This document shows positions 1 through 25,707 of a stretch of 36,658 nucleotides of DNA, in pieces. The stretch is from Candidatus Nanoanaerosalina archaeon (GTDB taxonomy: Archaea; Nanohalarchaeota; Nanosalinia; Nanosalinales; Nanoanaerosalinaceae): the NCBI GenBank assembly GCA_022729275.1, contig JALDAH010000002.1, positions 1 to 36,658 of the forward strand. Direction: 5' to 3'. The first letter of the stretch is position 1; each line of letters starts with the position of its first letter. Made by a program: the position numbers and the translations under genes. Below the pieces are notes generated by a model. That model saw nothing but the letters and a program-made list of their open reading frames with translations, searched no databases and had not been told where the DNA came from.

Positions 1-317
1 TCCGTGTTCTTGTCTCAGAACACGACTGACGGCTCGCGCTCTCACGCCCGCTACTGATTATCGGCACACCGAGAAGTTACCTCAGCGTATACCTAATCAG
101 CCGCAGTCCCATCCTAAGGCGCCGGAACATTTCAAGAAGACGCCATTCCAGGCAATTCTTCCCTATCCAGTATTAGCCTCAGTTTCCCGAGGTTATTCTG
201 GTCCTTAGGGCAGGTTGACTACGTGTTACTCAGCTTTCCGCTCCGATCTAAATCGGTCAGCTAGCATGGCTAAATCGGACTCCAAGAGCAGTGGCCTCCG
301 GCAGGAGCAACCGGAAT
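1..317 (-). rRNA. rrs: 16S (SSU) rRNA, 5' portion only; the gene runs off the left edge
   Basis: The reverse complement of 297-317 reads ATTCCGGTTGCTCCTGCCGGA, the archaeal SSU 5' terminus with one mismatch. The reverse complement of about 221-234 reads GCTGAGTAACACGT. GC is clearly higher than in flanking DNA. Track ORFs 215-406 and 226-426 are spurious. Confidence 0.9.
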
Positions 318-3171: not shown

Positions 3172-3633
3172 TCACAAATTCTTTAAACTTCCTCTGAGTT
3201 CTGAGTGAACCTCTTTTAAAAGCTCTCTGGCGTCTTCTTTCCATTTTCCTCTAGCCCAGCCATAGACCAATTTATCATAGACGCTTCTAAATGCATAGTA
3301 CCATACCGATCTCGTTCCTGAACTATTAGAATACTTTGTAACGACTTCTCCTTTTGAATCGATCGTAACAGACGCTGATGATCCTTCAGGGTTGTCTGTT
3401 GTTATATTGAGAACCAGCGTTATTTCTAAAACAGTAAAATCATCCATCTCGTTGTAACAGTTTATCTTGGATATTATGAGGCCTCTCTCAACATGGTGTC
3501 GGAATTTCTCCTCTTCAACCCGATCAAACATGAATCTTTTTTCTAAAAGATCTTTAACCTCACTATATGCTAACTCCCAATCAGAAACATCGATCGTTGT
3601 GGTTTTCCTACCAGCCTCCTCTTCTATATACAT
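3172..3633 (-). CDS. hypothetical protein, paralog 1 of a three-member family (153 aa)
   Basis: First gene of the triplet. A TATA-like TTATTTTAA on the minus strand (3656-3664) is centred about 27 nt upstream of the ATG, which fits a leaderless mRNA. The C-terminal block is VWYYAFRSVYDKLVYGWARGKWKEDARELLKEVHSELR. Confidence 0.7.
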   Translation of the reverse strand: MYIEEEAGRKTTTIDVSDWELAYSEVKDLLEKRFMFDRVEEEKFRHHVERGLIISKINCYNEMDDFTVLEITLVLNITTDNPEGSSASVTIDSKGEVVTKYSNSSGTRSVWYYAFRSVYDKLVYGWARGKWKEDARELLKEVHSELRGSLKNL

Positions 3634-3665
3634 AACAAAAAATGAACTTCACAACTTAAAATAAG

Positions 3666-3940
3666 TTACCTAACAGTCCAGTACTTCGGAATGTTTGTGG
3701 TTAATTCTTTGGTTTCACGTTTTTTCTAGTTAATTGTTCAGAAAAATGTTGGAAATGGAGTAGGTTTAAGTAAACTAGAGAGGTTCTAGGGTTGAAAAAA
3801 CAGGTTTACAGGGCTTCTAGTCACAGTTACAAACAATAGTTACAACTAATAAAAACATAACCGTCGGAAAAAAACCTTGAAAAAGACATACAAAAAGAAG
3901 TATACGACTTCTTCGATAATTCTATACGCCTATAACCACA
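3666..3940. repeat. island repeat, copy 1 (tail of module X plus full module Y)
   Basis: CCTAACAGTCCAGTACTTCGGAATGTTTGTGGTTAATTC...GTTTTTTC...AAACTAGAG...GAAAAAACAGG...CTAGT...ACGACTTCTTCGAT. It aligns by eye with 5800-6025 and 6797-6960. Confidence 0.8.
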
Positions 3941-4020
3941 ATCTAACAAAAGCCAAAACATGAGTCCTCCACTGGAAAATATGGAAGATTTTATATAACT
4001 ATTACAATTTAATTCCTGTT

Positions 4021-4431
4021 ATGTCCAACATTAAAGTGGTATTAAGTTCGAGTATGTCTTTTTTTGACAAAATAAAAAAATGGAGAGATAAACTGGAACA
4101 AAATAATTTTAAAGTGATTTTTTATCCTGAAAAAATAGAAGGAGACATAGCCAAAGGATACAGAAAAGAGTTCAAAAAATGTTATTCATCGATCAAGGAA
4201 ACAAATAAACTTGTCGTACTCAACTTTGAAAAAAACGGTGTGCCAGGTTATATCGGGGCCGGAGTCTTCGCAGAGATGGCTTTCGCACTAGGTATTGACA
4301 GAAAAGTCGATGTAAAATATTTAAATCCTATTTCAATAGAGAAACTTCCCTATGCTGAGGAGCTTAAGTTATGGAAAAAACTAGAATGGATATCAAAATT
4401 TGAAAATATGTCTGATCTCTGCAAAAAGTAA
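4021..4431 (+). CDS. orphan protein, possibly nucleoside 2-deoxyribosyltransferase-like fold (136 aa)
   Basis: A clean ORF. A TATA-like TTTTATATA at 3989-3997 is centred about 28 nt upstream of the ATG. The pattern LVVLNFEKNGVPGYIGAGVFAEMAFALG resembles the D/N-x-hydrophobic...G-x-x-G-x-x-x-E-x-G/A-x-A motif of that superfamily. The family call is weak. Confidence 0.6.
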   Translation: MSNIKVVLSSSMSFFDKIKKWRDKLEQNNFKVIFYPEKIEGDIAKGYRKEFKKCYSSIKETNKLVVLNFEKNGVPGYIGAGVFAEMAFALGIDRKVDVKYLNPISIEKLPYAEELKLWKKLEWISKFENMSDLCKK

Positions 4432-4570
4432 ACACTCACAACATTCACTAAATCTAACGGTCACGCTTTTTGAAAGAGCTTTGTTTTTTATTATATGCTT
4501 CATATATAAAAACAGTTCATAATTTCTGATAAGTCTAAACCATGTTTTCTAACACATTCCAGATTCTCAT

Positions 4571-4850
4571 CAACACCACCAAAGAACTCCTTGGTAAAAT
4601 ACAAAATGAAAACAGTGTACCAACAAAACCACTGGTCGGCAAACCGGTGAAGAAAGCCTGCATGCAACTTTTGATGAATTCATTGATAAATTATACATAC
4701 CTAACTACTGAAAACACCTCCTCCCAGTACTTCAGAAACCAATGCTGTCAACTTGATTCCGTTTTTTCATTCCAAAAAGAGCAGAAAAATCAGTTTGAGA
4801 ATTTTTAAAGTTGTTGACAGTTTTAAAAACCTTCGAGCATCGGCAGATGA
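4571..4850. repeat. island repeat, copy A (full module X plus degenerate module Y)
   Basis: Module X is nearly identical to 6650-6796 in two blocks of about 30 nt. The Y part keeps only CCAGTACTTCAGAA, CGTTTTTTC and CAGAAAAAT. Confidence 0.65.
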
Positions 4851-4895
4851 AAAGACAAATCTAATCAATAAAGATGATGTGTTATAAGTCCTAGA

Positions 4896-5717
4896 TTATA
4901 TATATACATCTATCTCGGTTTTCTCGTTTATGGTCCAGTGGTAGTTGATCCCTATTTGTCTGGGTATGTTGTTTACCTTGTATTTGATCTCAGTTATCCT
5001 GTAATCCTTATCCGCAAACTGTTCGAAAAATTTTTCTTCCTCCAAATACTGTTTGAAGTCTTCAAGGTACAAAGTGTCGTATTCCCCGTGATCTTTTGCA
5101 AATTCTAAAGTATGCCTCCATAAAGCAAACTCCTCAAGATTTGTATAGTTGAAAATATCGATTTTTTTATCCATGACAACTTCTGCAACATCTTTCCAGC
5201 TGTCGTACTTCAAAAGAAATTCTTCAATAGGAATATCTGATTTCAAAGTGTTAATTCCTTTAAACAGGTCTTTGTTAATCCTTGACGTTATTGCTAGGTC
5301 TGGGTAGTCTTCTAACCGTATCCTTCTGCCTGTTGAAAACCTTTGTCTGACCTTGCTTCCTCTTCCGTAATGTCCTCCGGTATTCACAAGCAGGTTGTAT
5401 CTGAAAAGAAACTTTTCTTCCTCCATTGTCAAGTCCTTATCAGTGTTTTTAGATATTTTTTCAAGGTCTTCCCTGATGCTTTCATAGAAGGTATCAACCT
5501 TTTCAAGCTCCTCCTCAACCTTTGATTCAATGGATATAGCTGTCAGAAAAGGTGTGATAGTGTGTTTCTCAAAGTCAAAGACCCCAGTCGCTTTCTGCTG
5601 CTCTAAGTGTTTAACTATTTTTTCCCTGTCCAGTTTTTTGAGCTCTTCAAAGTTTTCCACTTCATATATGTAGTCCCTTCCGTTCTGAGAATAAGGTTGT
5701 TCTTTAATAGCTTCCAT
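4896..5717 (-). CDS. orphan hypothetical protein (273 aa from the internal ATG)
   Basis: A long clean ORF. AAGGAG lies 7 nt upstream of the ATG at 5717, so that start is preferred over the track start at 5753. No family was recognised. Confidence 0.65.
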   Translation of the reverse strand: MEAIKEQPYSQNGRDYIYEVENFEELKKLDREKIVKHLEQQKATGVFDFEKHTITPFLTAISIESKVEEELEKVDTFYESIREDLEKISKNTDKDLTMEEEKFLFRYNLLVNTGGHYGRGSKVRQRFSTGRRIRLEDYPDLAITSRINKDLFKGINTLKSDIPIEEFLLKYDSWKDVAEVVMDKKIDIFNYTNLEEFALWRHTLEFAKDHGEYDTLYLEDFKQYLEEEKFFEQFADKDYRITEIKYKVNNIPRQIGINYHWTINEKTEIDVYI

Positions 5718-5799
5718 CCTGCACTCCTTAAAAATTACTACTTTTACATACATAAAAGTTTTAGCGGTGGCACAGTGATTAGTAATATTTTTAGTTAAA

Positions 5800-6025
5800 C
5801 TCTTTAATTTCTCGTTTTTTCTAATTAATTCTTCAAAAAAGAGTTGGGTGTGAAGTAAGTTTTGTCAAACTAGAGGGTTTGTAAGGTTAGAAAAACAGGT
5901 TCCCAAGGCCTCTAGTAATAGTTAGGACTAAGAAAAACATTTTAATTTTGAGAAAAAACCGGTGAAGAATGCAGACAGAAAGGAGTTAACGACTTCTTTG
6001 ATTATCCTAACTACTTAACTACAAA
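5800..6025. repeat. island repeat, copy 2 (module Y only)
   Basis: Over GTTTTTTC..AAACTAGAG it matches copy 1 at 48/62 and copy 3 at 50/62 in an ungapped hand alignment. It contains the inverted repeat CTAGAGG...CCTCTAG. Confidence 0.8.
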
Positions 6026-6067
6026 TAGTAATTAATCCTGTGCATATGTAGGTTATCCTCCATTTAA

Positions 6068-6595
6068 TTAATATGATTCTGAACTCCAAATCCAGTTAAC
6101 TATCGATTCAAAAACATTTTTAATCCATCTGATTATTGGTCCTGGTTTATCTACAGGAGCACTATGATCTCCTTCAACATCATAATCCTCAAAATATCCC
6201 CTTTGTTCTCTTTTTACGGTACCATTAATTCTGTTGCCAGCTGTCAGTTCATATTCATCGATTTCTTCTTCATCAGGTATAGATATACTTGCTTTTTCTC
6301 CCTCAGGAAACTCATCTAGACAGTTCTCTGTTCTATTTGAATTACTCAGATTAAAAATTTCAGAACGATTCGCTGAAGTTATATCAACCTCTAGAACATA
6401 TCTTTCAGGAGCATATAGGGATATATCCGAGCTAGGAACTGCTTCCTCATAACCTACCTCAACTATTTCGCCTTCTACATAGCAAAAAATCGGCGGGGCT
6501 ATCGAAAGAGAAATTGCATTTGTTGAAAGAAAAATTAATATGATCAATACCAAGCACGAGATTAAAAGCAGCTTATTATTATTTAACTGACCCAT
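6068..6595 (-). CDS. orphan secreted or membrane-anchored acidic protein (about 175 aa)
   Basis: The N-terminal hydrophobic segment LLLISCLVLIILIFL is followed by an acidic domain. There are four N-x-S/T sequons (NRS, NLS, NRT, NGT). The ATG at 6595 is preferred over the TTG at 6601. Confidence 0.6.
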   Translation of the reverse strand: MGQLNNNKLLLISCLVLIILIFLSTNAISLSIAPPIFCYVEGEIVEVGYEEAVPSSDISLYAPERYVLEVDITSANRSEIFNLSNSNRTENCLDEFPEGEKASISIPDEEEIDEYELTAGNRINGTVKREQRGYFEDYDVEGDHSAPVDKPGPIIRWIKNVFESIVNWIWSSESY

Positions 6596-6649
6596 AAACA
6601 ACGTTTAAATAAAAACCACATAAAAACCTAACCCTTGAACACAGACCTC

Positions 6650-6960
6650 ACTAACACATCCAAAGAACTCCTTGGTATAATACAAAATGAAAAAGAGGTT
6701 ACTGGCAACCTCTTGGTACTAATAAATCATATGAAGAAACTTTGTAGGAAGGAAGCAAAAGATTCCTTGATAAAATTTTACATGCCTAACTACTGACAGT
6801 CCAGTACGGAATGTTATTGGTTAATTCTCTGAATTCACTTTTTTTTCTATCTAATGATTCAGAAAAAGGTCGGATGTGGAGCAAGTTTTGTCAAACTAGA
6901 GGGTTTGTAGAGTGGGAAAAACAGGGTTACAAGACCCCTAGTAAGAGTTATATCTAGCAG
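6650..6960. repeat. island repeat, copy 3 (full module X plus full module Y)
   Basis: X spans 6650-6796 and Y spans 6797-6960. This is the most complete copy. Confidence 0.8.
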
Positions 6961-6975
6961 GAAAATACCGATATC

Positions 6976-6983
6976 AAAAAAAA
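6976..6983 (-). terminator. oligo-T tract directly after the CBS gene stop
   Basis: An A8 run on the plus strand gives T8 on the coding (minus) strand, beginning 12 nt after the TAG stop. Archaeal RNA polymerase terminates at oligo-T tracts. Confidence 0.35.
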
Positions 6984-6994
6984 TTATTACATAT

Positions 6995-7435
6995 CTATGG
7001 TCCTGCAGCAAGCTCCTCTAAAAGATCAACATAACCCGGCCATGTATGAAGTAAATCGGTCTGAGTTACTATACCAACCACTTCTCCGGATCCTGAAACA
7101 ATAGGAACTCTAGAAATATCGTTCTTGATCATTTTTACCGCCACATCATAAACATTATCGGATTCAAAACTGACTATCACATCTTCCGTCATGATATCCT
7201 TGACTTTGATCTCGGATACATCCTCCCCTTCTGCCACTACTTTATATAATATGTCTTTTCCAGCTATTATACCTATCACTTCATTGTTTTCTACTACAGC
7301 TAATCCTCTTACATCTTTTTCATTCATTTCTTGGGCTGCTTCTTTTATAGAAGCATTTTTATCGATTCCATATACATCATTGCTCATTATTTCGCTGACA
7401 CTTAGTTTGTTCATACCTAATTTTTTATTCCTCAA
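6995..7435 (-). CDS. CBS-domain pair protein
   Basis: Two CBS repeats are present: VSEIMSNDVYGIDKNASIKEAAQEMNEKDVRGLAVVENNEVIGIIAGKDIL and VKDIMTEDVIVSFESDNVYDVAVKMIKNDISRVPIVSGSGEVVGIVTQTDLL. Confidence 0.85.
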   Translation of the reverse strand: MRNKKLGMNKLSVSEIMSNDVYGIDKNASIKEAAQEMNEKDVRGLAVVENNEVIGIIAGKDILYKVVAEGEDVSEIKVKDIMTEDVIVSFESDNVYDVAVKMIKNDISRVPIVSGSGEVVGIVTQTDLLHTWPGYVDLLEELAAGP

Positions 7436-7479
7436 CTAATTAAAACTAACTATCACGTAAGAAATATGAAACAAAAAAT

Positions 7480-7801
7480 GAATGTGAAATTAAACTCTGA
7501 ACGACACACCCCCTTATTTCATCTGGAGAAAAAGGTGTTATTAAAACCTGGAAAAGTTTTATCAAAACAACCCCTTCATTTCTATTAAAATTGTTATTGT
7601 AAAATAACAACATTTAGTTGGCGTGTTGGACTCTGTAAACAGAAAAAAACTTCATATGCAGATACTAAAAAACAATAATTTACAACACAACAATACATAT
7701 AAACCCCCTTCCATGGAAAAAAGCAGTGTGAACAAAAAACATATATACCCCCCTATTTCATGTGCAGAAAAACTTATAAAACCCTTCTATGTATGGAAAA
7801 G
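7480..7801. other. cluster of ORB-like (origin recognition box) motifs downstream of the PolD large-subunit gene
   Basis: C-string plus dyad motifs occur in one orientation. They are 7505-7533 CACACCCCCTTATTTCATCTGGAGAAAAA, 7568-7590, 7701-7723 AAACCCCCTTCCATGGAAAAAAG, 7745-7772 ATACCCCCCTATTTCATGTGCAGAAAAA and 7778-7801. A weaker opposite-orientation copy lies near 7480-7495. Confidence 0.5.
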
Positions 7802-7814
7802 AAAATGAAAAAAA

Positions 7815-10800
7815 TTATTTAGATGTGAACTGACCAAGACTGGACTGCCTGTCAGCTCTGCCGAATAAAGATATAATCTGGTCCTTTAAAAGATAAATAT
7901 ACTGTCTTCTATAATTAGAAACCTTAAATTCATCAGCTATTTCCTCAGAGGGTTCAAGATATTTTCTTATAGCGCCTTCAGAAACTGTCAGAAGTATTCT
8001 GCCTCCGCATCTTGTACATACTCCTCTCAAAGGAACTCTCCTGAACTTTTCATTACAGTTCACACATCGGAATCTCTGCCTAGAAAAAGCGTTCAAGTTT
8101 CCCTTTATATCAGGTATAAAATGCTCTGTCAATAAAAGCTCGGCCAACATATCTTCATTGACGGATTTTATTTTTTTCCCGAGATCAAGTTGTGTCTGAA
8201 CTTTTTCGGACATCTCTCCAAGAGTAACATAGTTAGACTGAACAGGACCGTCTTCTATGTCTTTAGTAGGGTGTGTAAAATCAAAATCAAAAGACTGGTT
8301 TTTTTCGATCAAGTTCTCAGCAAGACCTATATTTAACTCGAAAGGAGAACAGAAGTTTTGGGATTTTTCATAAAGTTCCAAGGGATACTCAGAAACCACG
8401 TCAACGTTCCATGATTCATCATCAACCTCGTCAGGATGTAGAACTGTTGAAAGGATTAAAGGAGCGTCCATGGTTCTAGAACCTGTGCTGTCCGGTAAAA
8501 ACTGTCTAGAAAAGTTTAATAAAGCATCCATCAAAAGTATTACCGAATCCTCATCTCCGTCGCAGTTTCTTCTTTTTGCAGCATGCCAGTAAGGGTGTGC
8601 ATAAGTGCCCTTTGCATCGGCAAAACCTATTATCCTTCCAACTATGCCTCCGGATGTGTGAGGTGCAAGACCTATCACAAGCTCCCCTACCAGGTCTTCT
8701 GCTTTTTCAAAGTTGTAAAAAGAATCCAGTCCATAAAATTTTTCAAGTAGTTCATCAACGAACTTAGAAACGTTTAGAAGGTATTCATCGGCGGAAAAGT
8801 TGTAGCTGTTGTTGGATAAAACTATGTCTTGCGGCTTTAATACCAATACCTGATCGTCTCTTTCAAGTTTTTCTCCATTCACATCTTTTTTGTAACCCAG
8901 TTCTCTCAATTTATCAACAGAGGTTCCTATTTCACAAGGTTTAAAATGTGTAAGCGTCAAATCAGTTGAATCATATCTTACTGTGCCGTCCTTGTTGACA
9001 TATAGGTCGTACTTTTCTCTCAAAAGACCTTTCTCTATCGGTTCAACATGCCTTAGTTTACCGGTTACTTTTTTCGGTGACTTCAAAAGTTCTGGAAGAA
9101 CCCTCAAACCAAGATTTCTCTTTGCCTTGTTCATAAGTTCCTTGACCGGTATCTTGGTCTTTTTACTTCTCGACGTTTCTCCGCCACAGTTTCCGCATTT
9201 ATTTTCTTTACCTCTTTTACCACATTTTTTACACGTCCTCACCGGTTCGGATTTTTTCCCACAGTAAGGACAGTAGGAGAAATGAACTGTTCTGTTGCAT
9301 TCAGTGCAGAAATTATGTATTATTTCCTCGTTAACCGTTCCGTGTTCGCCATAACTTCTCATAAAATTACGCATTCTTCCTCCTTCCTCAGATCCACAGG
9401 GGAAAAGAAAGTGGGGGTCTCCTTTTAAAGACCTTCTCTCGGCTTTCTCCGGTCTTCCCATCCTTGCTCCTATATACACGGAATCTCTTTCTCGGATTTC
9501 AACTCCCAAAACATCCGAGATGCCTTTTATTATGCTTTCTTCAAAATCGCTTAAATCTGTTTTTTCAGGTTCCAGAGACCTATAAAGAATCTTAGAATCC
9601 TTTTCAGACAATATTATTTGTTGGCCGGATATTTCATGCTGAACAAAAAGTTCCTCAAGAGGTTTCTTAGCGGATTTTCCTAGCTTTAGCTTTTCGCCTT
9701 TATCAAAATCTGCTTTTTCAACTTCTTCATAAAGTTTTTTGAACAGTTCAAAATCTATACCAGACCAGAAAAACGTCATCCAGGGATGCAAAGGAACTTC
9801 TAATTTCTCCGATATTTTTATAGCTTCTTCAAAAGTAGGTTGTCCAAAAGGTCTTTTGATAAACTTCTTGATATCGAGATCTTTTTTTCCGTTTTTTTCA
9901 AGTGCTTTCCTCACATCCTTGGACCACCACTCAACAACATAAGGGGAAGGCACAAGATCTTTGCCATTCTCCACGAATTCTCCAAATGGAACAAGAACAT
10001 CTCCAAGGAAAAGAATCTCATCAATATCTCCTATGATCTCTCTGGCTTCCTCTCTGCTGTTTATACTCAAAACACTTCCGTCCTCCAGTCTTACAACAGG
10101 GCCTTCCACTGAATCGCAAGGTGTTGAAACAGTTGCCTTTCCAGGATATTCCATCTTTAGCTGTGTTCCGAGAGCCATAAACCTCTCAGTAACTTCCATT
10201 GTAGCAGGGTGGAAAGAAAGAGCTGCAAGACCTCCGGTCCTCGATCTTCCATATCTTATCCTGAAACCTCCTCTAACACCTGGAAAAGAAAAAATAGGTC
10301 TGCCCGCGACTACATGTTCCAAAAACTTGTCCGAAGCTTCATAAATTTTTTCTCCCTCGTCTTCTTCCTCAGCCTCTTCGGTACCGTTTCCATTATCTGA
10401 ATGTATTTCTTTCTGTAATTCCAGATAATCTTCGACCCATGACCAGTTTTCTATCCCAAAATCCTCTCCATAATTGTTTACTCTTTTCTTTATTTTTGGA
10501 GCTTTTAGTGGAAGACCATCAAGGTATATCAGACACATACCGCCTCTAATTCTGTTTGTATCCACTCTTTCTAAATCTTTGTAACTTGAAACTTCAAGGC
10601 TTTCTGTAGGAGTTCCGGTAATTTCAACAGGGACGTTCTCAGCTATAAAACGAGTTTCTTTTCTTTCAGGAGTGTACTGTTTTGTAGTGATCCTTGTAAA
10701 ATAATCCTCTACCTCAACAGCATACCTTTCGATTTCATCATCTCTTATCTTGAATCTTTCCAGACCGATGTTTTTTCTGATATAATCAGCCAGTAAAACA

Positions 10801-13970: not shown

Positions 13971-14121
13971 GTTTCCACTTGAAACAAGGTAGTTCTACAC
14001 CACCACCCCTTTGTTTCCTATGGAAATATAGTAATAATAACAATATAAGTATAACAGTGTTATATTATGATTATATTATGTTTTTTCTCTTGTTTAAATC
14101 TCCATATGAAATTAAGGTGTG
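13971..14121. other. oriC: candidate replication origin (ORB elements flanking an AT-rich unwinding region)
   Basis: Three ORB elements are present. O1 is 13971-13992, GTTTCCACTTGAAACAAGGTAG. O2 is 14001-14027 and its reverse complement reads ATTTCCATAGGAAACAAAGGGGTGGTG. O3 is 14098-14121, ATCTCCATATGAAATTAAGGTGTG. O2 and O3 are inverted around a 70-nt, very AT-rich stretch (14028-14097). Confidence 0.65.
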
Positions 14122-14230
14122 ATACCTTAAAAAAATATAACAATGTTATATTTTTTGATTTTATTTTATTTCACAGAAAATGAATATATAACTATGTTAT
14201 GTGAAATAAAATTTATATAACACTGTTATA
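14050..14230. repeat. four copies of the 15-bp palindrome TATAACANTGTTATA
   Basis: The copies are 14050-14064 TATAACAGTGTTATA, 14136-14150 TATAACAATGTTATA, 14187-14201 TATAACTATGTTATG (imperfect) and 14216-14230 TATAACACTGTTATA. Confidence 0.85.
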
Positions 14231-14235
14231 TTATT

Positions 14236-15303
14236 CTAGAGGAGTAATACAGGTATAATTATACATGACATCAATAATGATTTTTTTGCATCCAGACGTG
14301 AACTTATTAGACCTACACCGGTTGAAATGAAATAAATACTTACACCTGTGTGACCTGTCATATATAGTATCAGGAGAAGAAGTAATGTAATTATAGTGAT
14401 TTTTATTATTTTTTCATCTATTTTTTCTAAAATGAAAGAGAACATGAAAACTATTTTTTTACTTAATAACAACGTTAAACCTGAACTTATAATTCCAACA
14501 GAAATAATATACAATATTTTGATTTTTTCAGTGGAATAATTTGAAATAATGAAATCAGCAAGACCTGTTCTACTCCTAAGACTTGTTAAAATAATAATCA
14601 TTGAAGTAATAATATTAGTAGTATTTACAGATCCAAGTGCAGACATGAATTCTAGTCTATCCTCAGTATCAAGTACAGTAGCTGTGGATGAAGGACCTAT
14701 TCCAGGTAAAACAGATGAAAATATTCCTGCTATAAATCCCTTGAAACCTCCGACAAAATTTTTTTTATTGGGAAAAAAGAAATTAATTTTTTGAACAGGA
14801 AAATCATTACTAAATTTTTTTACCAGCAAAGGAGTTCCAAAAAGACCAGCAAACATAGGAAGGAAAGCTTCAGAAGTTCCTATTGAATTTATATTAAATA
14901 CTATCAAACCCACTAAAGAACCTAAAAAAACAGTTAATAAACCTTCTCTTATTTTTTTACAACTTAATATTATGTAGAAAAGAATAATTATTATAATAAA
15001 ATTTTGAATATATGATATGATTTCTAAAAAATAATTATAGAAAAAATAAAGAGGATATAAAAACAAGCAAGTGATTATAACTCCTGTTATAGATCCGTAG
15101 TAAGTTGTAAAAAAAGCCTTTGATCCTTCTCCTTTTAACACAAATTTTTTACCAGGTAATGTTATTAAAGGAGAATTTTCGTCAGGTATACCTATGAAAA
15201 TAGAAGGGCCATGATTTATCAGGCTATGAGTTATACCAATACCAAGAGCAAACATCACACCGTTTATACCATCTATAGAATAAACCATCAATACAGAAAA
15301 CAC
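14236..15303 (-). CDS. polytopic membrane protein, TctA/DUF112-like permease
   Basis: It is highly hydrophobic throughout, with LPGIGPSSTATVL-type motifs. The reading frame stays open a further 29 codons upstream of the GTG start (to 15390), and that stretch encodes a family-like N-terminus. Confidence 0.5.
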   Translation of the reverse strand: MFSVLMVYSIDGINGVMFALGIGITHSLINHGPSIFIGIPDENSPLITLPGKKFVLKGEGSKAFFTTYYGSITGVIITCLFLYPLYFFYNYFLEIISYIQNFIIIIILFYIILSCKKIREGLLTVFLGSLVGLIVFNINSIGTSEAFLPMFAGLFGTPLLVKKFSNDFPVQKINFFFPNKKNFVGGFKGFIAGIFSSVLPGIGPSSTATVLDTEDRLEFMSALGSVNTTNIITSMIIILTSLRSRTGLADFIISNYSTEKIKILYIISVGIISSGLTLLLSKKIVFMFSFILEKIDEKIIKITIITLLLLLILYMTGHTGVSIYFISTGVGLISSRLDAKKSLLMSCIIIPVLLL

Positions 15304-15483
15304 TGTGTTAGGATGAACACCAGGAAGACTTCCAGTAACAAGTCCTGAAAGACAACCTATTAATGCAAATATAACAGGATGAAGTATTGTTCACACACCT
15401 AGTGAAAAAAAGATCTCCATATAATTTTTCAGGTTAATACAAAAAAATATTCATTATACTAATGTTTTCATAAATAAATGAAA

Positions 15484-15498
15484 TATAACAGTGTTATA
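15484..15498. repeat. fifth copy of the palindrome TATAACAGTGTTATA
   Basis: A perfect copy in the divergent spacer between the permease and nac genes. An ORB-like ATCTCCATATAATTTTTCAGG lies at 15412-15432. Confidence 0.85.
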
Positions 15499-23465: not shown

Positions 23466-24872
23466 CTAAAGGTATGAAAACTTCGACATGTTCTTGTTGT
23501 GAAAACCTTTTCTATCGCTCGTCCACTCAAATAACTCCCTGTCGTACATCTTAATCAAGAAATTGATTATCTTGGTGCCTACTTCCGAACCATAAAGCTT
23601 TTCACCAGCCTTCATCCTTTTTATCAGTTCTTCGTTTTTGTACACATGTTCAACCATCATTCTAACAAACTTTCCTGAAACAGGAGGAACCAAAAGATTG
23701 GTGTTGGCCTTGAAAACAGTTTCAGGTCTGTCCGTATTAAATCTAACAGTCATGCAGAGCGTTTCCTCTATATGGTTCAGTTCTTCCTGCATGCTCCCGG
23801 AGTCTGTCAATGCAGCGAAACACTTACCTGATTTAAAAAATTCGTATACATGCGCATGTTTTTTCCAAAGACCCGTAAATAGAAAGTTTTCATGGTTTTT
23901 TCCCAACCTTTCTATTTTCTTTCTGAGATCATAAGCGTCCAGAGCTTTTTTTGTTGCGTTCATCTCAACGAAGTTCACGTTGAAACCTCTCTCAACCAAT
24001 TCGATTACACCTTCTATTATGGCGGAAAATCTTCCTGGCTGTAGGTTCGCTCTTCTGTGTATATCTACACGAATCCAGTCATCTCTTTTTTCGAGTTCGG
24101 GGTAAACATCGAATACCGATTCTTCAGAAGGAGCCATAGTTTTCATCTGTATAGCATCCACTACGGAGTTGCCCACGACCTCCATGTTTTTTCTTCCACC
24201 TGACTCTTCGTGATAGCCTTCCCTTAAAAGGTGTTCTTTGTTCGTTTTAGTTGGAGGGAAGAGGTACTGTGATCCAGCAGAACCAATGAATGTGTTGTAC
24301 TGTTCCGGGAAGGGTTCGTTTCTTTCAAGTTCCCACTCTCCATCGAACTGTTTATCTATGAACTCTGTTATAGGGTAAAAATCAGTTGTTTTTGGAGCCA
24401 TACCTCTTAGTCCTGCCTCATTATGAGCTGATTTCTGATTTGTGGCAAACATCCACGCCTGAGGAACTATGCCTGCTGCTAGCGTGTCTCCGTGCACTAT
24501 AGGAAGAATTTTTTTCCCATCATATTTTCTCAGGTGCTCGGCAAGTTTCTTAGTTTTTATCATTATCTCTGCGGTTTTCTGGCTTAAACCTCCTCTTATA
24601 TTCAGATTAGCGCCTAAATTATTGTTAAGACCGTATTCTTCCATTCCATGGCTCAAAAGTTCGTCGTAATGCTGCCCTGTGTGTATAACAAAAGAAGGCA
24701 CATCAAAGTTCTTTGCTGCTTCCATCAAAGGAGCTTGTTTGTAAAAATCCGGTTTTGTGGATGTTACGATCGCTAGTACGAAATCTCCTTTTTCCATTTG
24801 TTTCTCGATCAGTTCTTCATGTATCTTTATTCCTTTTTCCATTTTACCACTTAGTTGCCAAAATCTTTCCAT
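23466..24872 (-). CDS. UDP-N-acetylglucosamine 2-epimerase-like enzyme
   Basis: It has the HTGQHYD motif and a GT-B-like two-domain length. The true start may be the ATG at 24842, which would remove the 22-nt overlap with the upstream gene. Confidence 0.7.
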   Translation of the reverse strand: MERFWQLSGKMEKGIKIHEELIEKQMEKGDFVLAIVTSTKPDFYKQAPLMEAAKNFDVPSFVIHTGQHYDELLSHGMEEYGLNNNLGANLNIRGGLSQKTAEIMIKTKKLAEHLRKYDGKKILPIVHGDTLAAGIVPQAWMFATNQKSAHNEAGLRGMAPKTTDFYPITEFIDKQFDGEWELERNEPFPEQYNTFIGSAGSQYLFPPTKTNKEHLLREGYHEESGGRKNMEVVGNSVVDAIQMKTMAPSEESVFDVYPELEKRDDWIRVDIHRRANLQPGRFSAIIEGVIELVERGFNVNFVEMNATKKALDAYDLRKKIERLGKNHENFLFTGLWKKHAHVYEFFKSGKCFAALTDSGSMQEELNHIEETLCMTVRFNTDRPETVFKANTNLLVPPVSGKFVRMMVEHVYKNEELIKRMKAGEKLYGSEVGTKIINFLIKMYDRELFEWTSDRKGFHNKNMSKFSYL

Positions 24873-25618
24873 TCTCCTTCGTAAAGATATCCTTTTAGAA
24901 GATCTTTTTCTGAGAGCTCCTCAAAAATCGTTTCAATAGCCACTTTTTCGGTTTTTTTATCCTTGATCCTACCGATGATGGACGGTTCTATGATATAGAA
25001 ACCCGCATTTATTAGTTTTGTGGCGGCTTCTTCCGGTTTTTCTTTGAAACCCACAACTTTGTTCCCTTTCATATTAACCACACCGTACTTTGATGTGTCA
25101 TCGGTTGTCGTAAGCGCCATGGTAGCCTCAGGTCTGTTCTTCCTGTGTATTTTGAGCATATCTTCAACGTCTATATTGCAGATAACATCTCCGTTGGTAA
25201 GGATAAAAGTGTCTTTTAGATGTTCGCCTAGCTTCCTAAGACATCCTGCGGTTCCCAGGGGGTTATCTTCAACCGAGTAATATATAGTTAATCCGTACTT
25301 TTCCTCGTTTATTTTTTCTCTCATTTTTTCAGCGTCCTGATTGGTTGCGATGTATACAGTTTTTACCCCGGAATTTTCAAGATGTTTCAGTTTTTCATCT
25401 ATTATCTTGATGCTCTTTATTTTTTTTACACAGGAAGGCGTTTCTTCGCTACCTCCGCAAAGTATCACTGCTTTCTCGACCATTTTGCTTTTGAAATGTT
25501 CTTTTAGAAATTTTTCAATCGCTCTGGACCTGTTATTCATTTTTTTCTTTTCTTTTTCTCTGTCAATTCTTTCTACAAGCTCCTCATCCAGAGTTAGGGA
25601 AATCCTTTTTCTTGCCAT
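24851..25618 (-). CDS. ribbon-helix-helix (CopG-like) domain fused to a sugar-phosphate nucleotidyltransferase
   Basis: The N-terminus RKRISLTLDEELVERIDRE...NRSRAIEKFLKEH is RHH-like. The body carries NTP-transferase motifs (EDNPLGTAGCL, LTNGDVICNID, YGVV, EKP, INAGFYIIEP). The ATG at 25618 is preferred. Confidence 0.7.
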   Translation of the reverse strand: MARKRISLTLDEELVERIDREKEKKKMNNRSRAIEKFLKEHFKSKMVEKAVILCGGSEETPSCVKKIKSIKIIDEKLKHLENSGVKTVYIATNQDAEKMREKINEEKYGLTIYYSVEDNPLGTAGCLRKLGEHLKDTFILTNGDVICNIDVEDMLKIHRKNRPEATMALTTTDDTSKYGVVNMKGNKVVGFKEKPEEAATKLINAGFYIIEPSIIGRIKDKKTEKVAIETIFEELSEKDLLKGYLYEGEWKDFGN

Positions 25619-25707
25619 TATTATCAAGTAATAAGAATAAAAGGATTTAATAGATTAATGTATTATAGTCTTAAATATTAAAACGCTTTTAAGAGGAAAA
25701 TTCTTCA

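Follow-up and report, generated by a model that had tools for sequence, protein, structure and literature searches.

The interval between a CBS-domain gene and a 153-aa gene in a Nanohaloarchaeota MAG near Ca. Nanoanaerosalina halalkaliphila holds three accessory genes set among same-orientation, non-coding repeats. The reading that we prefer, and to which we assign roughly even chances, is that the whole intergenic region (terminator, module Y and promoter side) was duplicated as the three genes inserted, and that its first copy, Y1, acts in cis. We analyzed a window of 36,658 nucleotides (the whole stretch of DNA under study), in which an earlier note had pointed to four spacers of roughly 310–460 nt between the two genes; the measured lengths are 387, 464, 314 and 393 nt (3634–4020, 4432–4895, 5754–6067 and 6602–6994). 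The features of the island and its anchors are the following.

3172–3633, minus strand: 153-aa ORF, the left anchor, heading the conserved operon 153aa-194aa-182aa-DUF167-DnaG
3655–3668, minus strand: putative TATA box of the 153-aa operon, TTATTTTAA, ~27–35 nt upstream of the ATG (leaderless-type spacing)
3672–3835, plus strand: Y1 (nhmmer E = 1e-49), the orthologous and best conserved copy
3864–3945, plus strand: Z1, an R-type module starting with an A7 run (minus-strand T7)
4021–4431, plus strand: cargo gene 1, 136 aa, distant nucleoside 2-deoxyribosyltransferase/SLOG-like family
4538–4713, plus strand: XA (profile E = 2e-46), with a conserved left end (4566–4612), a variable middle and a right end (4636–4713)
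4714–4850, plus strand: degenerate Y claimed earlier (“copy A” or “YA”), not supported, at most a fully decayed relic
4896–5753, minus strand: cargo gene 2, an ORFan of 285 aa, or of 273 aa if translation starts at an internal ATG (5717)
5766–5931, plus strand: Y2 (nhmmer E = 8e-43), the most diverged copy, directly upstream of cargo gene 2
5947–6028, plus strand: Z2, an R-type module starting with an A6 run (minus-strand T6, ~110 nt past cargo gene 3)
6068–6595, minus strand: cargo gene 3, 175 aa, hydrophobic near its N terminus
6622–6799, plus strand: X3 (profile E = 3e-47), abutting Y3
6796–6957, plus strand: Y3 (nhmmer E = 2e-47), adjoining the CBS gene and 77% identical to Y1
6976–6983, minus strand: T8 run 12 nt past the CBS stop codon, a predicted oligo-T terminator
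6995–7435, minus strand: CBS-domain gene (Pfam CBS, E = 2e-28), the right anchor

The CBS gene is a conserved neighbor in all lineages, and the 153-aa gene, for which a Pfam search returned no domain and which has 22 homologues (the named ones only in Nanohaloarchaeota), lies downstream of it in relatives every time. Their junction is located ~6 kb from the Cdc6/ORB origin region. The box TTATTTTAA keeps the same distance in all lineages examined, and this conservation suggests that it is the promoter of the 153-aa operon. Oligo-T is an archaeal termination signal, and the T8 run is accordingly a candidate terminator of the CBS gene; a T-run is found at the equivalent place after the upstream gene in three other lineages (L004, L009 and L013).

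Module Y, ~165 nt long, is present in three copies. A repeat search delineated a 174-nt family (3689–3862, 5784–5957 and 6810–6983; ungapped identity 66–71%), and a profile HMM of Y gave exactly three matches in the 36.6-kb window (3673–3835, 5769–5931 and 6796–6957; E = 1e-43 to 1e-50). Pairwise identity of the copies is 69–77% over ~159 aligned columns, in agreement with the identities counted earlier by hand, and the pairwise local alignment scores of spacers 1, 2 and 3 lie z = 37–51 above dinucleotide shuffles, i.e., the similarity is better than that of shuffled AT-rich sequence. Stop codons in all six frames are found in each of the three copies, and the Y core is non-coding, as had been proposed. 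The earlier count of four elements holds for the three copies of Y and for the X part of copy A, but not for its Y part: that region (about 4712–4850) is indistinguishable from shuffles (z = 0.2 and 2.9 vs spacers 1 and 2), yields no match to the Y profile even at E <= 100, and shares with Y a single sequence, the 14-mer CCAGTACTTCAGAA. Each Y contains the expected T6–T8 run (3720–25, 5815–20 and 6839–46) and is followed on its right by an A6–A8 run (3868–74, 5953–58 and 6976–83). These runs had been taken as insulators of the Y core; the runs are real, but the one to the right of Y3 is better read as the putative oligo-T terminator of the CBS gene.

Module X was correctly recognized in copies A and 3 (z = 18.5 for one vs the other); its ends show 89% and 92% conservation, and its middle varies. 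Another module, Z, had been overlooked. It follows Y1 and Y2, and its two copies are 76% identical over 58 nt (p < 0.001). Taken together, the modules form two collinear units, Y-Z-[cargo]-X-(Y), in which the Z-to-X distance is 699 vs 695 nt.

The confinement of the repeats to this locus, their common orientation and their even spacing (2081–2095 nt) are also what a purely in-place tandem segmental duplication would produce. Under this explanation, which we consider improbable, the sequence between copies diverged or turned over, the two genes without known relatives were born locally without any transfer, and the repeats have no function beyond Y1. The cargo genes bear on it in different ways. 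All three had been called orphans, which is true of the 285-aa gene, whose sole match among 5.8 billion (5.8e9) protein clusters is to itself, which has no family-library match, and whose predicted structure is of low confidence (pLDDT 38). The 175-aa gene likewise has no match in Pfam, PHROG, PADLOC or NCBIfam and no viral relative; as read from its sequence, the hydrophobic segment suggests a secreted or membrane-anchored product. Both genes would suit local birth, as would the cargo GC content of 32–37%, which is not clearly foreign compared to neighboring genes. The 136-aa gene, however, is no orphan: it belongs to a widespread family with 201 representative homologues, some of which give borderline matches to PF05014 (nucleoside 2-deoxyribosyltransferase), and was therefore acquired rather than born locally. 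Moreover, the inner segments of the two units retain no residual similarity in DNA or protein (z = -0.1 and -0.4) although their flanks are 66–89% identical, ORFs of 175–285 aa are unlikely by chance in a 35% GC genome, and in other lineages foreign genes have demonstrably entered this junction. A TATA-like box of its own precedes each cargo gene (at about -25 to -34 for the 136-aa gene). At the beginning of their coding sequences, the 153-aa and 285-aa genes are similar at only p ≈ 0.06; a clear likeness there would have shown that promoter and start had been duplicated together.

Comparison to relatives reveals an empty site. In two sister lineages, Y is single-copy, with the putative oligo-T terminator of the preceding gene on one side and the TATA box of the conserved 153-aa…DnaG operon on the other. 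In one of them (L005, identical to L009-12; 153-aa protein 90% identical), the arrangement is CBS – 223 nt – 153aa, and the spacer consists of one Y without an island. This locus aligns to the window at 8242–6793 and 3829–3419, so that the island ends exactly in Y1 and Y3. In N. halalkaliphila, the arrangement is CBS – orf196 – one Y – 153aa. The order of upstream-gene T-run, Y, and TATA box ~27–35 nt before the ATG is kept in all Y-bearing lineages. The number of unrelated genes at the CBS|153aa junction in nine lineages is 0 (L019, L020, L021, L024 and L025), 1 (L013), 3 (L022: GNAT, AlbA_2 and HATPase_c_4) or 6–7 (L016-18, including DUF3800 and dCMP deaminase); thus, the junction is a recurrent insertion hot spot. 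Relatives thus do not share one set or order of genes here, contrary to the refuting case named in the earlier note, and this variation, together with the empty site bearing a single Y, makes “recombination hot spot” and “repeated regulatory module”, two labels offered earlier, reasonable ones. The fallback offered with them, local duplication of promoter regions, comes close to our preferred reading, to which real variation in gene content has to be added. It should be noted that the insertions of other lineages at this junction contain no such repeats, which are specific to this lineage.

Outside the island, the repeats are represented by a single copy, in the representative genome of N. halalkaliphila, and are absent from 151 kb of related loci, viral contigs, phages and plasmids. 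A pattern of the conserved core of Y gave a single match in 185,579 representative genomes and one in JGI metagenome contigs. A short, non-coding, A/T-rich unit in several copies is reminiscent of a MITE-type non-autonomous transposable element, formed by Y with or without X, that landed several times. We regard this origin as very improbable and already largely refuted: the rarity of the core pattern aside, the copy borders lack terminal inverted repeats and target-site duplications, all copies have one orientation within one 3.4-kb interval, a single copy occupies the orthologous position in two other species, and, as noted earlier, no integrase or transposase domain is found in window ORFs of at least 100 aa. 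As classes for the repeats, the integron, the MITE and the Rfam RNA family were each rejected (no attC hairpin; no TIR/TSD; no Rfam match at E <= 10).

The parallel between the two units raises the question of site-specific capture. X and/or Y may be recombination sites of an integron-like system whose recombinase would come from another part of the genome, from the haloarchaeal host or from a virus, such that the 136-aa and 175-aa genes would be two ~700-nt mobile cassettes on a shared X backbone; we find this quite improbable. The two Z-[cargo ~620 nt]-X units carry unrelated cargos at nearly the same length, and the shared ~175-nt X backbone, with conserved ends and variable middle, resembles the pattern of attC sites. 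Z2 and the right half of X are homologous (p < 0.001 for Z2 vs the XA right half; X-only profile match E = 0.004), so that direct repeats flank the cargos, although Z1 vs XA or X3 is not individually significant. At its right end, X reads RCCTAAC, a weak 7-mer match to the inverse-core consensus of attC, RYYYAAC. The locus is also a proven hot spot, and archaeal MAGs, DPANN included, have been reported to contain integrons or CALINs (PMC9668308). Conversely, the matching GTTRRRY core is absent from the other end of X, no end-to-end hairpin of X forms on either strand (z = 0.17 to -1.55), and no tyrosine or serine recombinase lies within the 36.6-kb window. The cargo genes occupy both strands, each with its own promoter-like box; X has only two copies, with none in relatives' loci, viral contigs, phages or plasmids; and such sites are missing where other lineages have insertions at this junction. 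The proposal of a gene-cassette array, in the integron sense, therefore finds no support. The likeness to integron arrays and CALINs is in single short genes that alternate with non-coding repeats of one orientation, spaced by less than 4 kb, in the layout of X and, for CALINs, in the lack of an adjacent integrase. The repeats differ in that the single-stranded attC hairpin, the defining feature, is missing, in their length and identity (160–420 nt, 66–89%, compared to shorter attCs of conserved structure and non-conserved sequence), in the strands and promoter-like boxes of the genes, and in that one repeat is an orthologous, conserved part of the core chromosome.

The copies of Y are conserved to different degrees. 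Y1 and the single Y of N. halalkaliphila (L004) share 91% identity overall and 98% in the 3' hairpin, compared to 72.5% for the adjacent gene and 47% at third codon positions, and the high-identity tract around Y1 (3618–3830) has sharp ends. Y2 is 69% identical to Y1 and merely 55% in its 5' part, which is now A/T-rich (TAATATTTTTAG) and possibly serves as a TATA box for the 285-aa gene. Y2 and Y3 look like decaying relics, whereas Y1, the conserved copy beside the operon, is probably functional. The phylogeny of Y is incongruent: Y1 shares 81% identity with the closer species, below the 86% of the adjacent gene, and 91% with the more distant one, and the Y of L009 contains a 25-nt patch of Y3/Y2 type. 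This incongruence weighs against the preferred reading; to account for it, one has to invoke gene conversion, transfer or, in one lineage, a relaxation of constraint.

Among archaeal upstream regulatory regions, near-uniform identity of 91–98% over ~150 nt is unusual; an RNA gene would fit it better. Y could then be a plus-strand sRNA gene that points away from the 153-aa gene, perhaps with a TATA box common to both, and that has three paralogues in the island, at least Y1 being functional, a possibility that we take seriously while considering it unlikely. In its favor, Y1 is conserved far beyond synonymous sites and within sharp boundaries; the plus strand gives the better consensus fold (-15.0 vs -9.3 kcal/mol), with many G·U pairs that are A·C on the opposite strand; the 48-nt hairpin ACTAGAG…AAAAACA…CTCTAGT is kept in the more distant lineage L013; and in all copies an A/T-rich box precedes the conserved start CAGTCCAGTAC by ~10–20 nt. 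However, Y has no Rfam match even at E <= 10, its folding energies are no better than those of shuffles (z = -0.05 to -1.45, plus strand), and covariation among n = 5 sequences is weak (3 pairs with double changes; 88.6% of cells paired vs 86.5% in shuffled), with one “compensated” pair broken in L009. In addition, the conserved T6–T8 run ~48 nt into Y would end a plus-strand archaeal transcript before the best-conserved 3' half, and there is neither a T-run after Y on the plus strand nor a consistently placed promoter on the minus strand. Finally, Y is well conserved only next to the operon, and this favors a role in cis that depends on position. E. coli has tandem intergenic long direct repeats (LDR/Ldr-Rdl and QUAD/Sib-Ibs) coding for type I toxin-antitoxin pairs; like the repeats described here, they are a few hundred nucleotides long, occur in several tandem same-orientation copies and were first seen as “non-coding”. 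The repeats of the island differ in being separated by ordinary genes and in having no conserved small hydrophobic ORF: every copy of Y has six-frame stops, and the translation of X has no protein homologues and is not conserved as protein (4/5 substitutions in the conserved left end are non-synonymous).

To return to duplication of the intergenic region: in Nanohaloarchaeota, the junction of the CBS gene and the 153-aa…DnaG operon is a hot spot that is permissive for insertions. As judged from relatives, the ancestral junction of this genus-level clade would have consisted, on the minus strand, of an oligo-T terminator, a ~165-nt Y and the operon TATA box. Three accessory genes would have entered it, each gain being accompanied by a duplication of resident intergenic sequence, either by Campbell-type single-crossover integration of circular DNA bearing a homologous copy, or by segmental duplication followed by content replacement. 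Because the gains came with intergenic duplication, the island would be bounded and subdivided by same-orientation Y (with Z and X).

Some known systems come close to this picture. Campbell-type integration or amplification between direct repeats is a classical recombination model; it is matched here by inserts bracketed by direct repeats of a sequence that is single at the empty site, by nested repetition that fits successive events, and by repeats that permit later excision or deletion. The case differs in that no donor molecule, junction read or recombinase was found, nor any circular junction or population variant; L002 and L003 share one arrangement. The flanking copies are 23–31% diverged, so the events would be old or the donors divergent. 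Three related lineages (L002, L010 and L014) occur together in sample ERZ27266011; homologous donor DNA would therefore be available. In Neisseria, homologous recombination with related DNA is the proposed route for minimal mobile elements (MMEs) and for the mosaic arrays of intergenic repeats (NIMEs), and the repeats form genome-wide families. The island shares with them a fixed conserved flanking gene pair, different unrelated gene sets per lineage, the lack of mobility genes, modular intergenic repeats in mosaic order and the same proposed route. It differs in being archaeal (DPANN) and in that its repeats are the locus's own intergenic copies, not found elsewhere and present in one lineage only. 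We know of no natural-transformation system in this DPANN genome.

If the intergenic region was duplicated in this manner, the repeat copies would be scars of insertions, as well as a ready-made expression context, with T-runs ending the upstream gene and Y2 directly upstream of the 285-aa gene, and substrates for later homologous recombination (deletion, conversion, excision). Y1 alone, at its native place beside the operon promoter, would be under strong constraint, as a cis-acting upstream control or insulator element of the 153-aa operon, and Y3, Y2 and “YA” would be progressively decayed relics. Other lineages gained genes at the junction without repeats; therefore, intergenic duplication is not needed for insertion. 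The island is a real but local feature of genome plasticity, and not a known mobile element.

The window is archaeal, with the 5' end of a 16S rRNA gene at 1-317 (minus strand), and encodes DnaG, a DUF167 protein, three unannotated genes, a CBS-domain protein, both subunits of PolD, Cdc6/Orc1 and further core genes. The island extends from the start of the 153-aa gene (3633), which heads an operon that closes with DnaG, to the CBS stop codon (6995), and comprises three ORFs set among long spacers, four in number, of 387, 464, 314 and 393 nt (spacers 1, A, 2 and 3). A direct-repeat search returned a 174-nt family with three copies (3689-3862, 5784-5957 and 6810-6983; module Y), and the pairwise local alignment scores of spacers 1, 2 and 3 exceeded those of dinucleotide shuffles by 37-51 standard deviations. 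The repeats are real, far beyond chance. The earlier note had counted four copies of one element; the count is corrected here to a mosaic of three copies of Y, two of X and two of Z.

Repeat modules of the island
3673-3835, module Y, copy Y1
5769-5931, module Y, copy Y2
6796-6957, module Y, copy Y3
4538-4713, module X, copy XA, in spacer A
6622-6799, module X, copy X3, in spacer 3
3864-3945, module Z, copy Z1, after Y1
5947-6028, module Z, copy Z2, after Y2

A profile HMM of Y gave exactly the three Y matches listed in the whole window, all within 3.4 kb. The two X copies (alignment z = 18.5) are conserved at the left end (89% over 47 nt) and the right end (92% over 24 nt), and poorly in the middle. 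Module Z, which had not been distinguished before, is a separate unit with 76% identity between its copies. Z2 and the right half of XA are homologous (p < 0.001), an X-only profile independently matches Z2 (E = 0.004), and the 17-mer AAACCGGTGAAGAA[A/T]GC is common to both. The degenerate Y previously claimed in spacer A was not recovered: alignments to spacers 1 and 2 gave z = 0.2 and 2.9, and the Y profile found nothing there at E <= 100. Every Y copy has stop codons in all six frames. We also considered X/Z as a decayed protein gene (…DEFID…PNY-stop); in-frame indels were suggestive, but the profile search matched only a spurious 88-aa ORF of the window itself. Substitutions in the conserved left end of X are mostly non-synonymous, and X is treated as non-coding.

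By exact protein matches, the window belongs to metagenome assemblies of soda-lake type, in which L001-L003 represent one strain. Outside the window, a degenerate Y-core pattern had one match in 185,579 representative genomes, in Ca. Nanoanaerosalina halalkaliphila NHA20 (locus L004), and one match in JGI metagenome contigs (L005, identical to L009-L012). Y is single-copy in both lineages, in the same position and orientation as in the window, and the 223-nt spacer between the CBS gene and the 153-aa gene of L009 is essentially Y throughout. L005 aligns continuously to window positions 8242-6793 (the end of PolD, CBS and Y3) and also to 3829-3419 (Y1 and the 153-aa gene); therefore, the island lies exactly between two copies of an element that is single at the empty site. 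The more distant L013 retains only a 48-nt palindromic piece of Y (ACTAGAG…AAAAACA…CTCTAGT), and a covariance model of this piece had no further match in 151 kb (the window and related loci). A phylum-wide hairpin upstream of the 153-aa gene was considered and rejected, as most candidates were 7-8-bp inverted repeats occurring at the chance rate (about 0.1-1 per 230 nt); among them, only that of L013 is truly homologous to Y. No copy of X or Z was found outside the island in the window and the related loci compared. The repeats had no match in phage and plasmid collections, and motif scans of viral contigs gave four chance matches with no wider similarity.

Using contigs that carry homologues of the 153-aa gene, we compared the junction between this gene and the CBS gene across nine lineages; the homologous proteins bear names only from Nanohaloarchaeota.

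Junction between the CBS gene and the 153-aa gene outside the window
L005 (= L009-L012; 153-aa identity to the window 90%): gap of 223 nt, gene-free
L004 (N. halalkaliphila): orf196
L013/L014: one 87-aa membrane ORF
L021: 157 nt
L019, L020, L024 and L025: 37-51 nt
L022: acetyltransferase, AlbA_2 and HATPase_c_4
L016-L018: 6-7 genes, among them DUF3800, a dCMP-type deaminase and a zinc-ribbon protein

The junction thus holds 0, 1, 3 or 6-7 unrelated genes in these nine lineages, and the inserted proteins are related neither to one another nor to the three cargo proteins of the window. Because differing, mutually unrelated genes occupy it across lineages, the junction is a recurrent insertion hot spot. 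The earlier note had called for a comparison of gene content between the repeats with that in relatives, and variation was the outcome; the same flanking orthologues enclose different content in related genomes, which is the pattern that defines flexible-gene hot spots. No long repeats of comparable length were found in the islands of the other lineages at this junction.

Several features of these loci are recorded here in their own right. The CBS protein is longer (185-199 aa) in L019 (5364-5963), L020 (5406-5963), L024 (3394-3963) and L025 (3383-3949), with what its sequence suggests is a Cys-rich, zinc-ribbon-like C-terminal extension; these genes end 37-51 nt before the 153-aa gene, and the TATA box of the operon directly follows the stop. 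In L022, at least five copies of an 11-nt periodic motif, (A)ATCAACAA, lie at 5841-5967 upstream of the 158-aa homologue; the array occupies the equivalent position of Y, which it replaces, and its copies resemble iterons or repeated sites for a regulator. Between PolD and CBS, the window (7446-7613, minus strand) and L009 (9032-9232) each have a short ORF, of 55-66 aa, and the two share the peptide LLLYNNNFNRNEGV, with 14 of 15 residues identical by BLAST; this may be a conserved micro-gene, or else conserved non-coding DNA that happens to read as an ORF.

The position of transcription signals around Y indicates what was multiplied. A box, TTATTTTAA, lies about 27-35 nt before the ATG in all homologues of the 153-aa gene, and in the window it is found at 3655-3668, just left of Y1. 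Since the box is between Y1 and the ATG, Y is upstream of the core promoter, and the mRNA of the operon is probably leaderless. Read on the coding (minus) strand, the A-run that lies right of each Y becomes a run of T; at Y3 this is a T8, located 12 nt past the CBS stop. In L004 and L009, orf196 and CBS, respectively, are likewise followed by a T-run. Oligo-T is a known archaeal termination signal. Y itself contains the inverted repeat TTTTTCT-N13-AGAAAAA, made up of a T6-8 and an A5-6 run, which puts T-runs on both strands. With T-runs after the upstream genes and the box on the promoter side, we conclude that the multiplied unit is the complete intergenic region (terminator, Y and promoter side). 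The T/A runs described earlier as insulating the core are indeed present, and their proposed meaning is replaced by a simpler one, the probable terminator of the upstream gene within a copied intergenic region.

A TATA-like box precedes every cargo gene, at about -25 to -35, and that of the 285-aa gene is in the diverged 5' part of Y2. The start codon and the next four codons of the 153-aa gene (MYIEE; 3621-3635) and the 285-aa gene (MYVKV; 5741-5755) agree at 13 of 15 nt and are collinear with Y1 and Y2. The gene start may thus have been part of the duplication, though the match reaches only p ≈ 0.06 versus shuffles. Homology of the 153-aa promoter region to the 3' end of X/Z was not significant (p = 0.43-0.84).

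The island can be described as two units. Unit 1 is Y1-Z1-[136-aa gene]-XA, with the unsupported Y relic behind it, and unit 2 is Y2-Z2-[175-aa gene]-X3-Y3; the 285-aa gene is between the two units, with Y2 immediately upstream. The distance from Z to X is 699 nt in unit 1 and 695 nt in unit 2, and no homology was found between the cargo segments of the two units. Direct repeats of resident sequence flanking each insert, in combination with one copy at the empty site, would be the expected product of two routes: a Campbell-type single crossover with circular DNA carrying a homologous segment, or segmental duplication with later replacement of content. Either route is an inference. Homologous donors are plausible because three related nanohaloarchaeal lineages, represented by L002 (island-bearing), L010 (empty site) and L014 (orf87), co-occur in one ENA assembly, ERZ27266011.

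A site-specific, integron-like system is less likely. The spacing of the island repeats, 0.9-2.1 kb, is within the limit used for such arrays, defined as at least two sites <4 kb apart with short ORFs mostly in one orientation (PMC9668308); the island ORFs run +, -, -, each with a TATA-like box. There are only two X copies, and X lacks an end-to-end hairpin. In integrons and CALINs, the attC sites consist of imperfectly inverted repeats (R''-L''…L'-R'), which as single strands adopt a conserved hairpin; the conserved ends of XA and X3 were unpaired in single-stranded DNA folding of both strands (z = 0.17 to -1.55), and the one RYYYAAC-like 7-mer lacks its GTTRRRY partner. Integrons have an IntI-type tyrosine recombinase and an attI site beside the array, and CALINs lack both. 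The absence of an integrase or transposase noted before was borne out: no integrase or recombinase domain was found in window ORFs of at least 100 aa or in the island ORFs. The likeness to an integron/CALIN array is superficial, as the defining attC structure is not there. An undescribed cassette capture in Nanohaloarchaeota, with X/Z/Y as recombination sites and neither a nearby integrase nor an attC-type hairpin, seems to us quite improbable; if true, single-gene cassettes of ~700 nt with a common backbone of ~175 nt would move between co-occurring DPANN lineages into a hot spot near the origin. In a milder version of this reading, Y would be a new clade-specific small RNA, the gene of which is also a landing pad.

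A miniature inverted-repeat transposable element (MITE) is essentially excluded: terminal inverted repeats and target-site duplications are both missing, and Y is single-copy and orthologous in other species. A repeat search and inspection of the alignments found no terminal inverted repeats at the copy borders, and dispersed copies were not found: N. halalkaliphila has one Y, and there are none elsewhere in 151 kb of related loci. The repeats appear to be local. The locus behaves like bacterial flexible-gene hot spots between conserved core genes, and the nearest known analogue is the minimal mobile elements of Neisseria, in which intergenic repeats form mosaics. We would class the locus as a hot-spot island of a DPANN archaeon whose gene slots are marked off by duplicates of its own presumed intergenic control region.

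The cargo (136 aa on plus, 285 aa and 175 aa on minus) had been described as three orphan genes. This held for the 285-aa protein, listed before as 273 aa, the length from an internal ATG, which found only itself in 5.8 billion clusters, and did not hold for the 136-aa protein, which has 201 representative homologues, some of the longer ones with borderline nucleoside 2-deoxyribosyltransferase/SLOG matches. Judged by eye, the 175-aa protein has a hydrophobic N-terminal segment resembling a signal or membrane anchor. Neither the island ORFs nor orf196 of the relative had a match in Pfam, PHROGs, PADLOC or NCBIfam, and no relative of the three cargo genes was found in IMG/VR. The structures predicted for the 285-aa protein (pLDDT 38) and the 153-aa protein (pLDDT 46) were of too low quality for use.

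We compared the conservation of Y to that of the adjacent 153-aa gene.

Identity of Y1 and of the 153-aa gene to their counterparts in two relatives
L004: Y 91% (98% in the 3' hairpin); 153-aa gene 72.5%; third codon positions 47%
L009: Y 81%; 153-aa gene 86%; third codon positions 66%

The two comparisons are mutually discordant. The high-identity tract between the window and L004 extends from ~3618 to 3830, after which identity falls to 25-50% (40-nt windows), and a 25-nt patch in the Y of L009 matches Y3 at 23/25, Y2 at 21/25 and Y1 at 15/25. On these alignments, either the L009 copy must have been relaxed or converted, or a segment of ~210 nt must have been exchanged between lineages, or both; the mosaic L009 copy, with its Y3-type patch, is at most an indirect hint of exchange by homologous recombination. 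Within the window, Y1 is the best conserved copy, Y3 and Y2 are 77% and 69% identical to it, and the Y of spacer A is gone. This gradient fits a position-dependent function of the operon-adjacent Y1 and decay of the other copies.

Two roles of Y were considered. The near-uniform conservation between two species would be expected of a small RNA gene; however, there is no Rfam family (Rfam 15 at gathering thresholds matched only the 16S rRNA fragment at 1-317, with nothing in the repeats, and at E <= 10 over 3500-7100 gave two chance-level matches, both outside the repeats), and the folding energies of single Y copies are no better than those of shuffles (z = -0.05 to -1.45). The consensus fold is more stable on the plus strand (-15.0 versus -9.3 kcal/mol) and makes use of G·U pairs, and the single consistent stem has 7 bp around a 34-nt loop. 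Covariation, in five sequences only, is weak, with double changes in 3 of 35 pairs, 88.6% of cells paired versus 86.5% in shuffles, and a score reached by 16 of 500 shuffles. A plus-strand transcript would also reach the conserved T6-8 run before the best-conserved half of Y. We regard a small RNA gene as rather unlikely, and a cis-acting DNA or transcription-boundary role would rank slightly above it. Other candidates were rejected. H/ACA or C/D-box RNAs for Y and X would require boxes that in fact vary between copies, and inspection by eye showed neither a pseudouridylation pocket nor a K-turn. Searches for tRNA and tmRNA were negative. As regards a type I toxin-antitoxin system, in which each repeat would pair a conserved small ORF with an overlapping antisense RNA, no small hydrophobic ORF recurs in each repeat: each Y is interrupted by the six-frame stops, a 12-aa mini-ORF in Y is not kept in Y2 or L009, and the X peptide is hydrophilic, frameshifted in XA and without homologues. 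Reading the 5' end of Y, TCCAGTAC(TTC)GGAAT, as an ORB/Orc-binding site needs a 2-5-nt insertion in the ORB core.

True ORB-like motifs are concentrated at 13971-15498. A canonical mini-ORB-like motif, TTTCAAGTGGAAAC, is located at 13971-13984 (minus strand), ~45 nt upstream of the Cdc6/Orc1 gene start, and supports a predicted replication origin ~6-7 kb from the island. A perfect palindrome, TATAACAGTGTTATA, is found in the window at 14050-14064, 14136-14150, 14216-14230 and 15484-15498, and in relatives in L009 (1284-2732), L013 (951-2401 and 9453-9467) and L021 (152-166 and 1102-1116). It clusters around the TctA/Cdc6 region (12 matches with at most 3 mismatches versus 1.4 expected) and also occurs just downstream of CBS in L013 and L021, at the junction that carries the island in the window; it may be an origin-associated or regulator-binding site. 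Two further ORFs deserve mention. The PolD large subunit of Nanohaloarchaeota archaeon QJJ-7 (L020, 199-5127; 1642 aa) has Intein_splicing and LAGLIDADG matches, which indicates a putative intein that is missing from the 1154-1158-aa PolD of the window. A nucleotidyl-transferase ORF of the window (24851-25627, minus strand; TTG start call) has an N-terminal ribbon-helix-helix (CopG) match and is either an unusual fusion or a mis-called start merging two genes.

Y is a non-coding element of ~165 nt with conservation above that of the neighbouring proteins between two species, and it is a candidate regulator or small RNA of the DnaG-ending operon in a group for which hardly any non-coding functions are known. 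If the repeats are relic duplications only, the island is a case of ordinary, though tidy, genome plasticity. Gain and loss of accessory genes are poorly understood in DPANN archaea, with their tiny genomes and dependence on hosts, and this locus is a concrete, alignable case, in which insertions across the phylum return to one junction, flanked by core genes of replication and RNA metabolism. In one lineage the empty site, the filled site and the duplicated junction sequence are available side by side, which makes the recombination route testable with existing metagenome reads.
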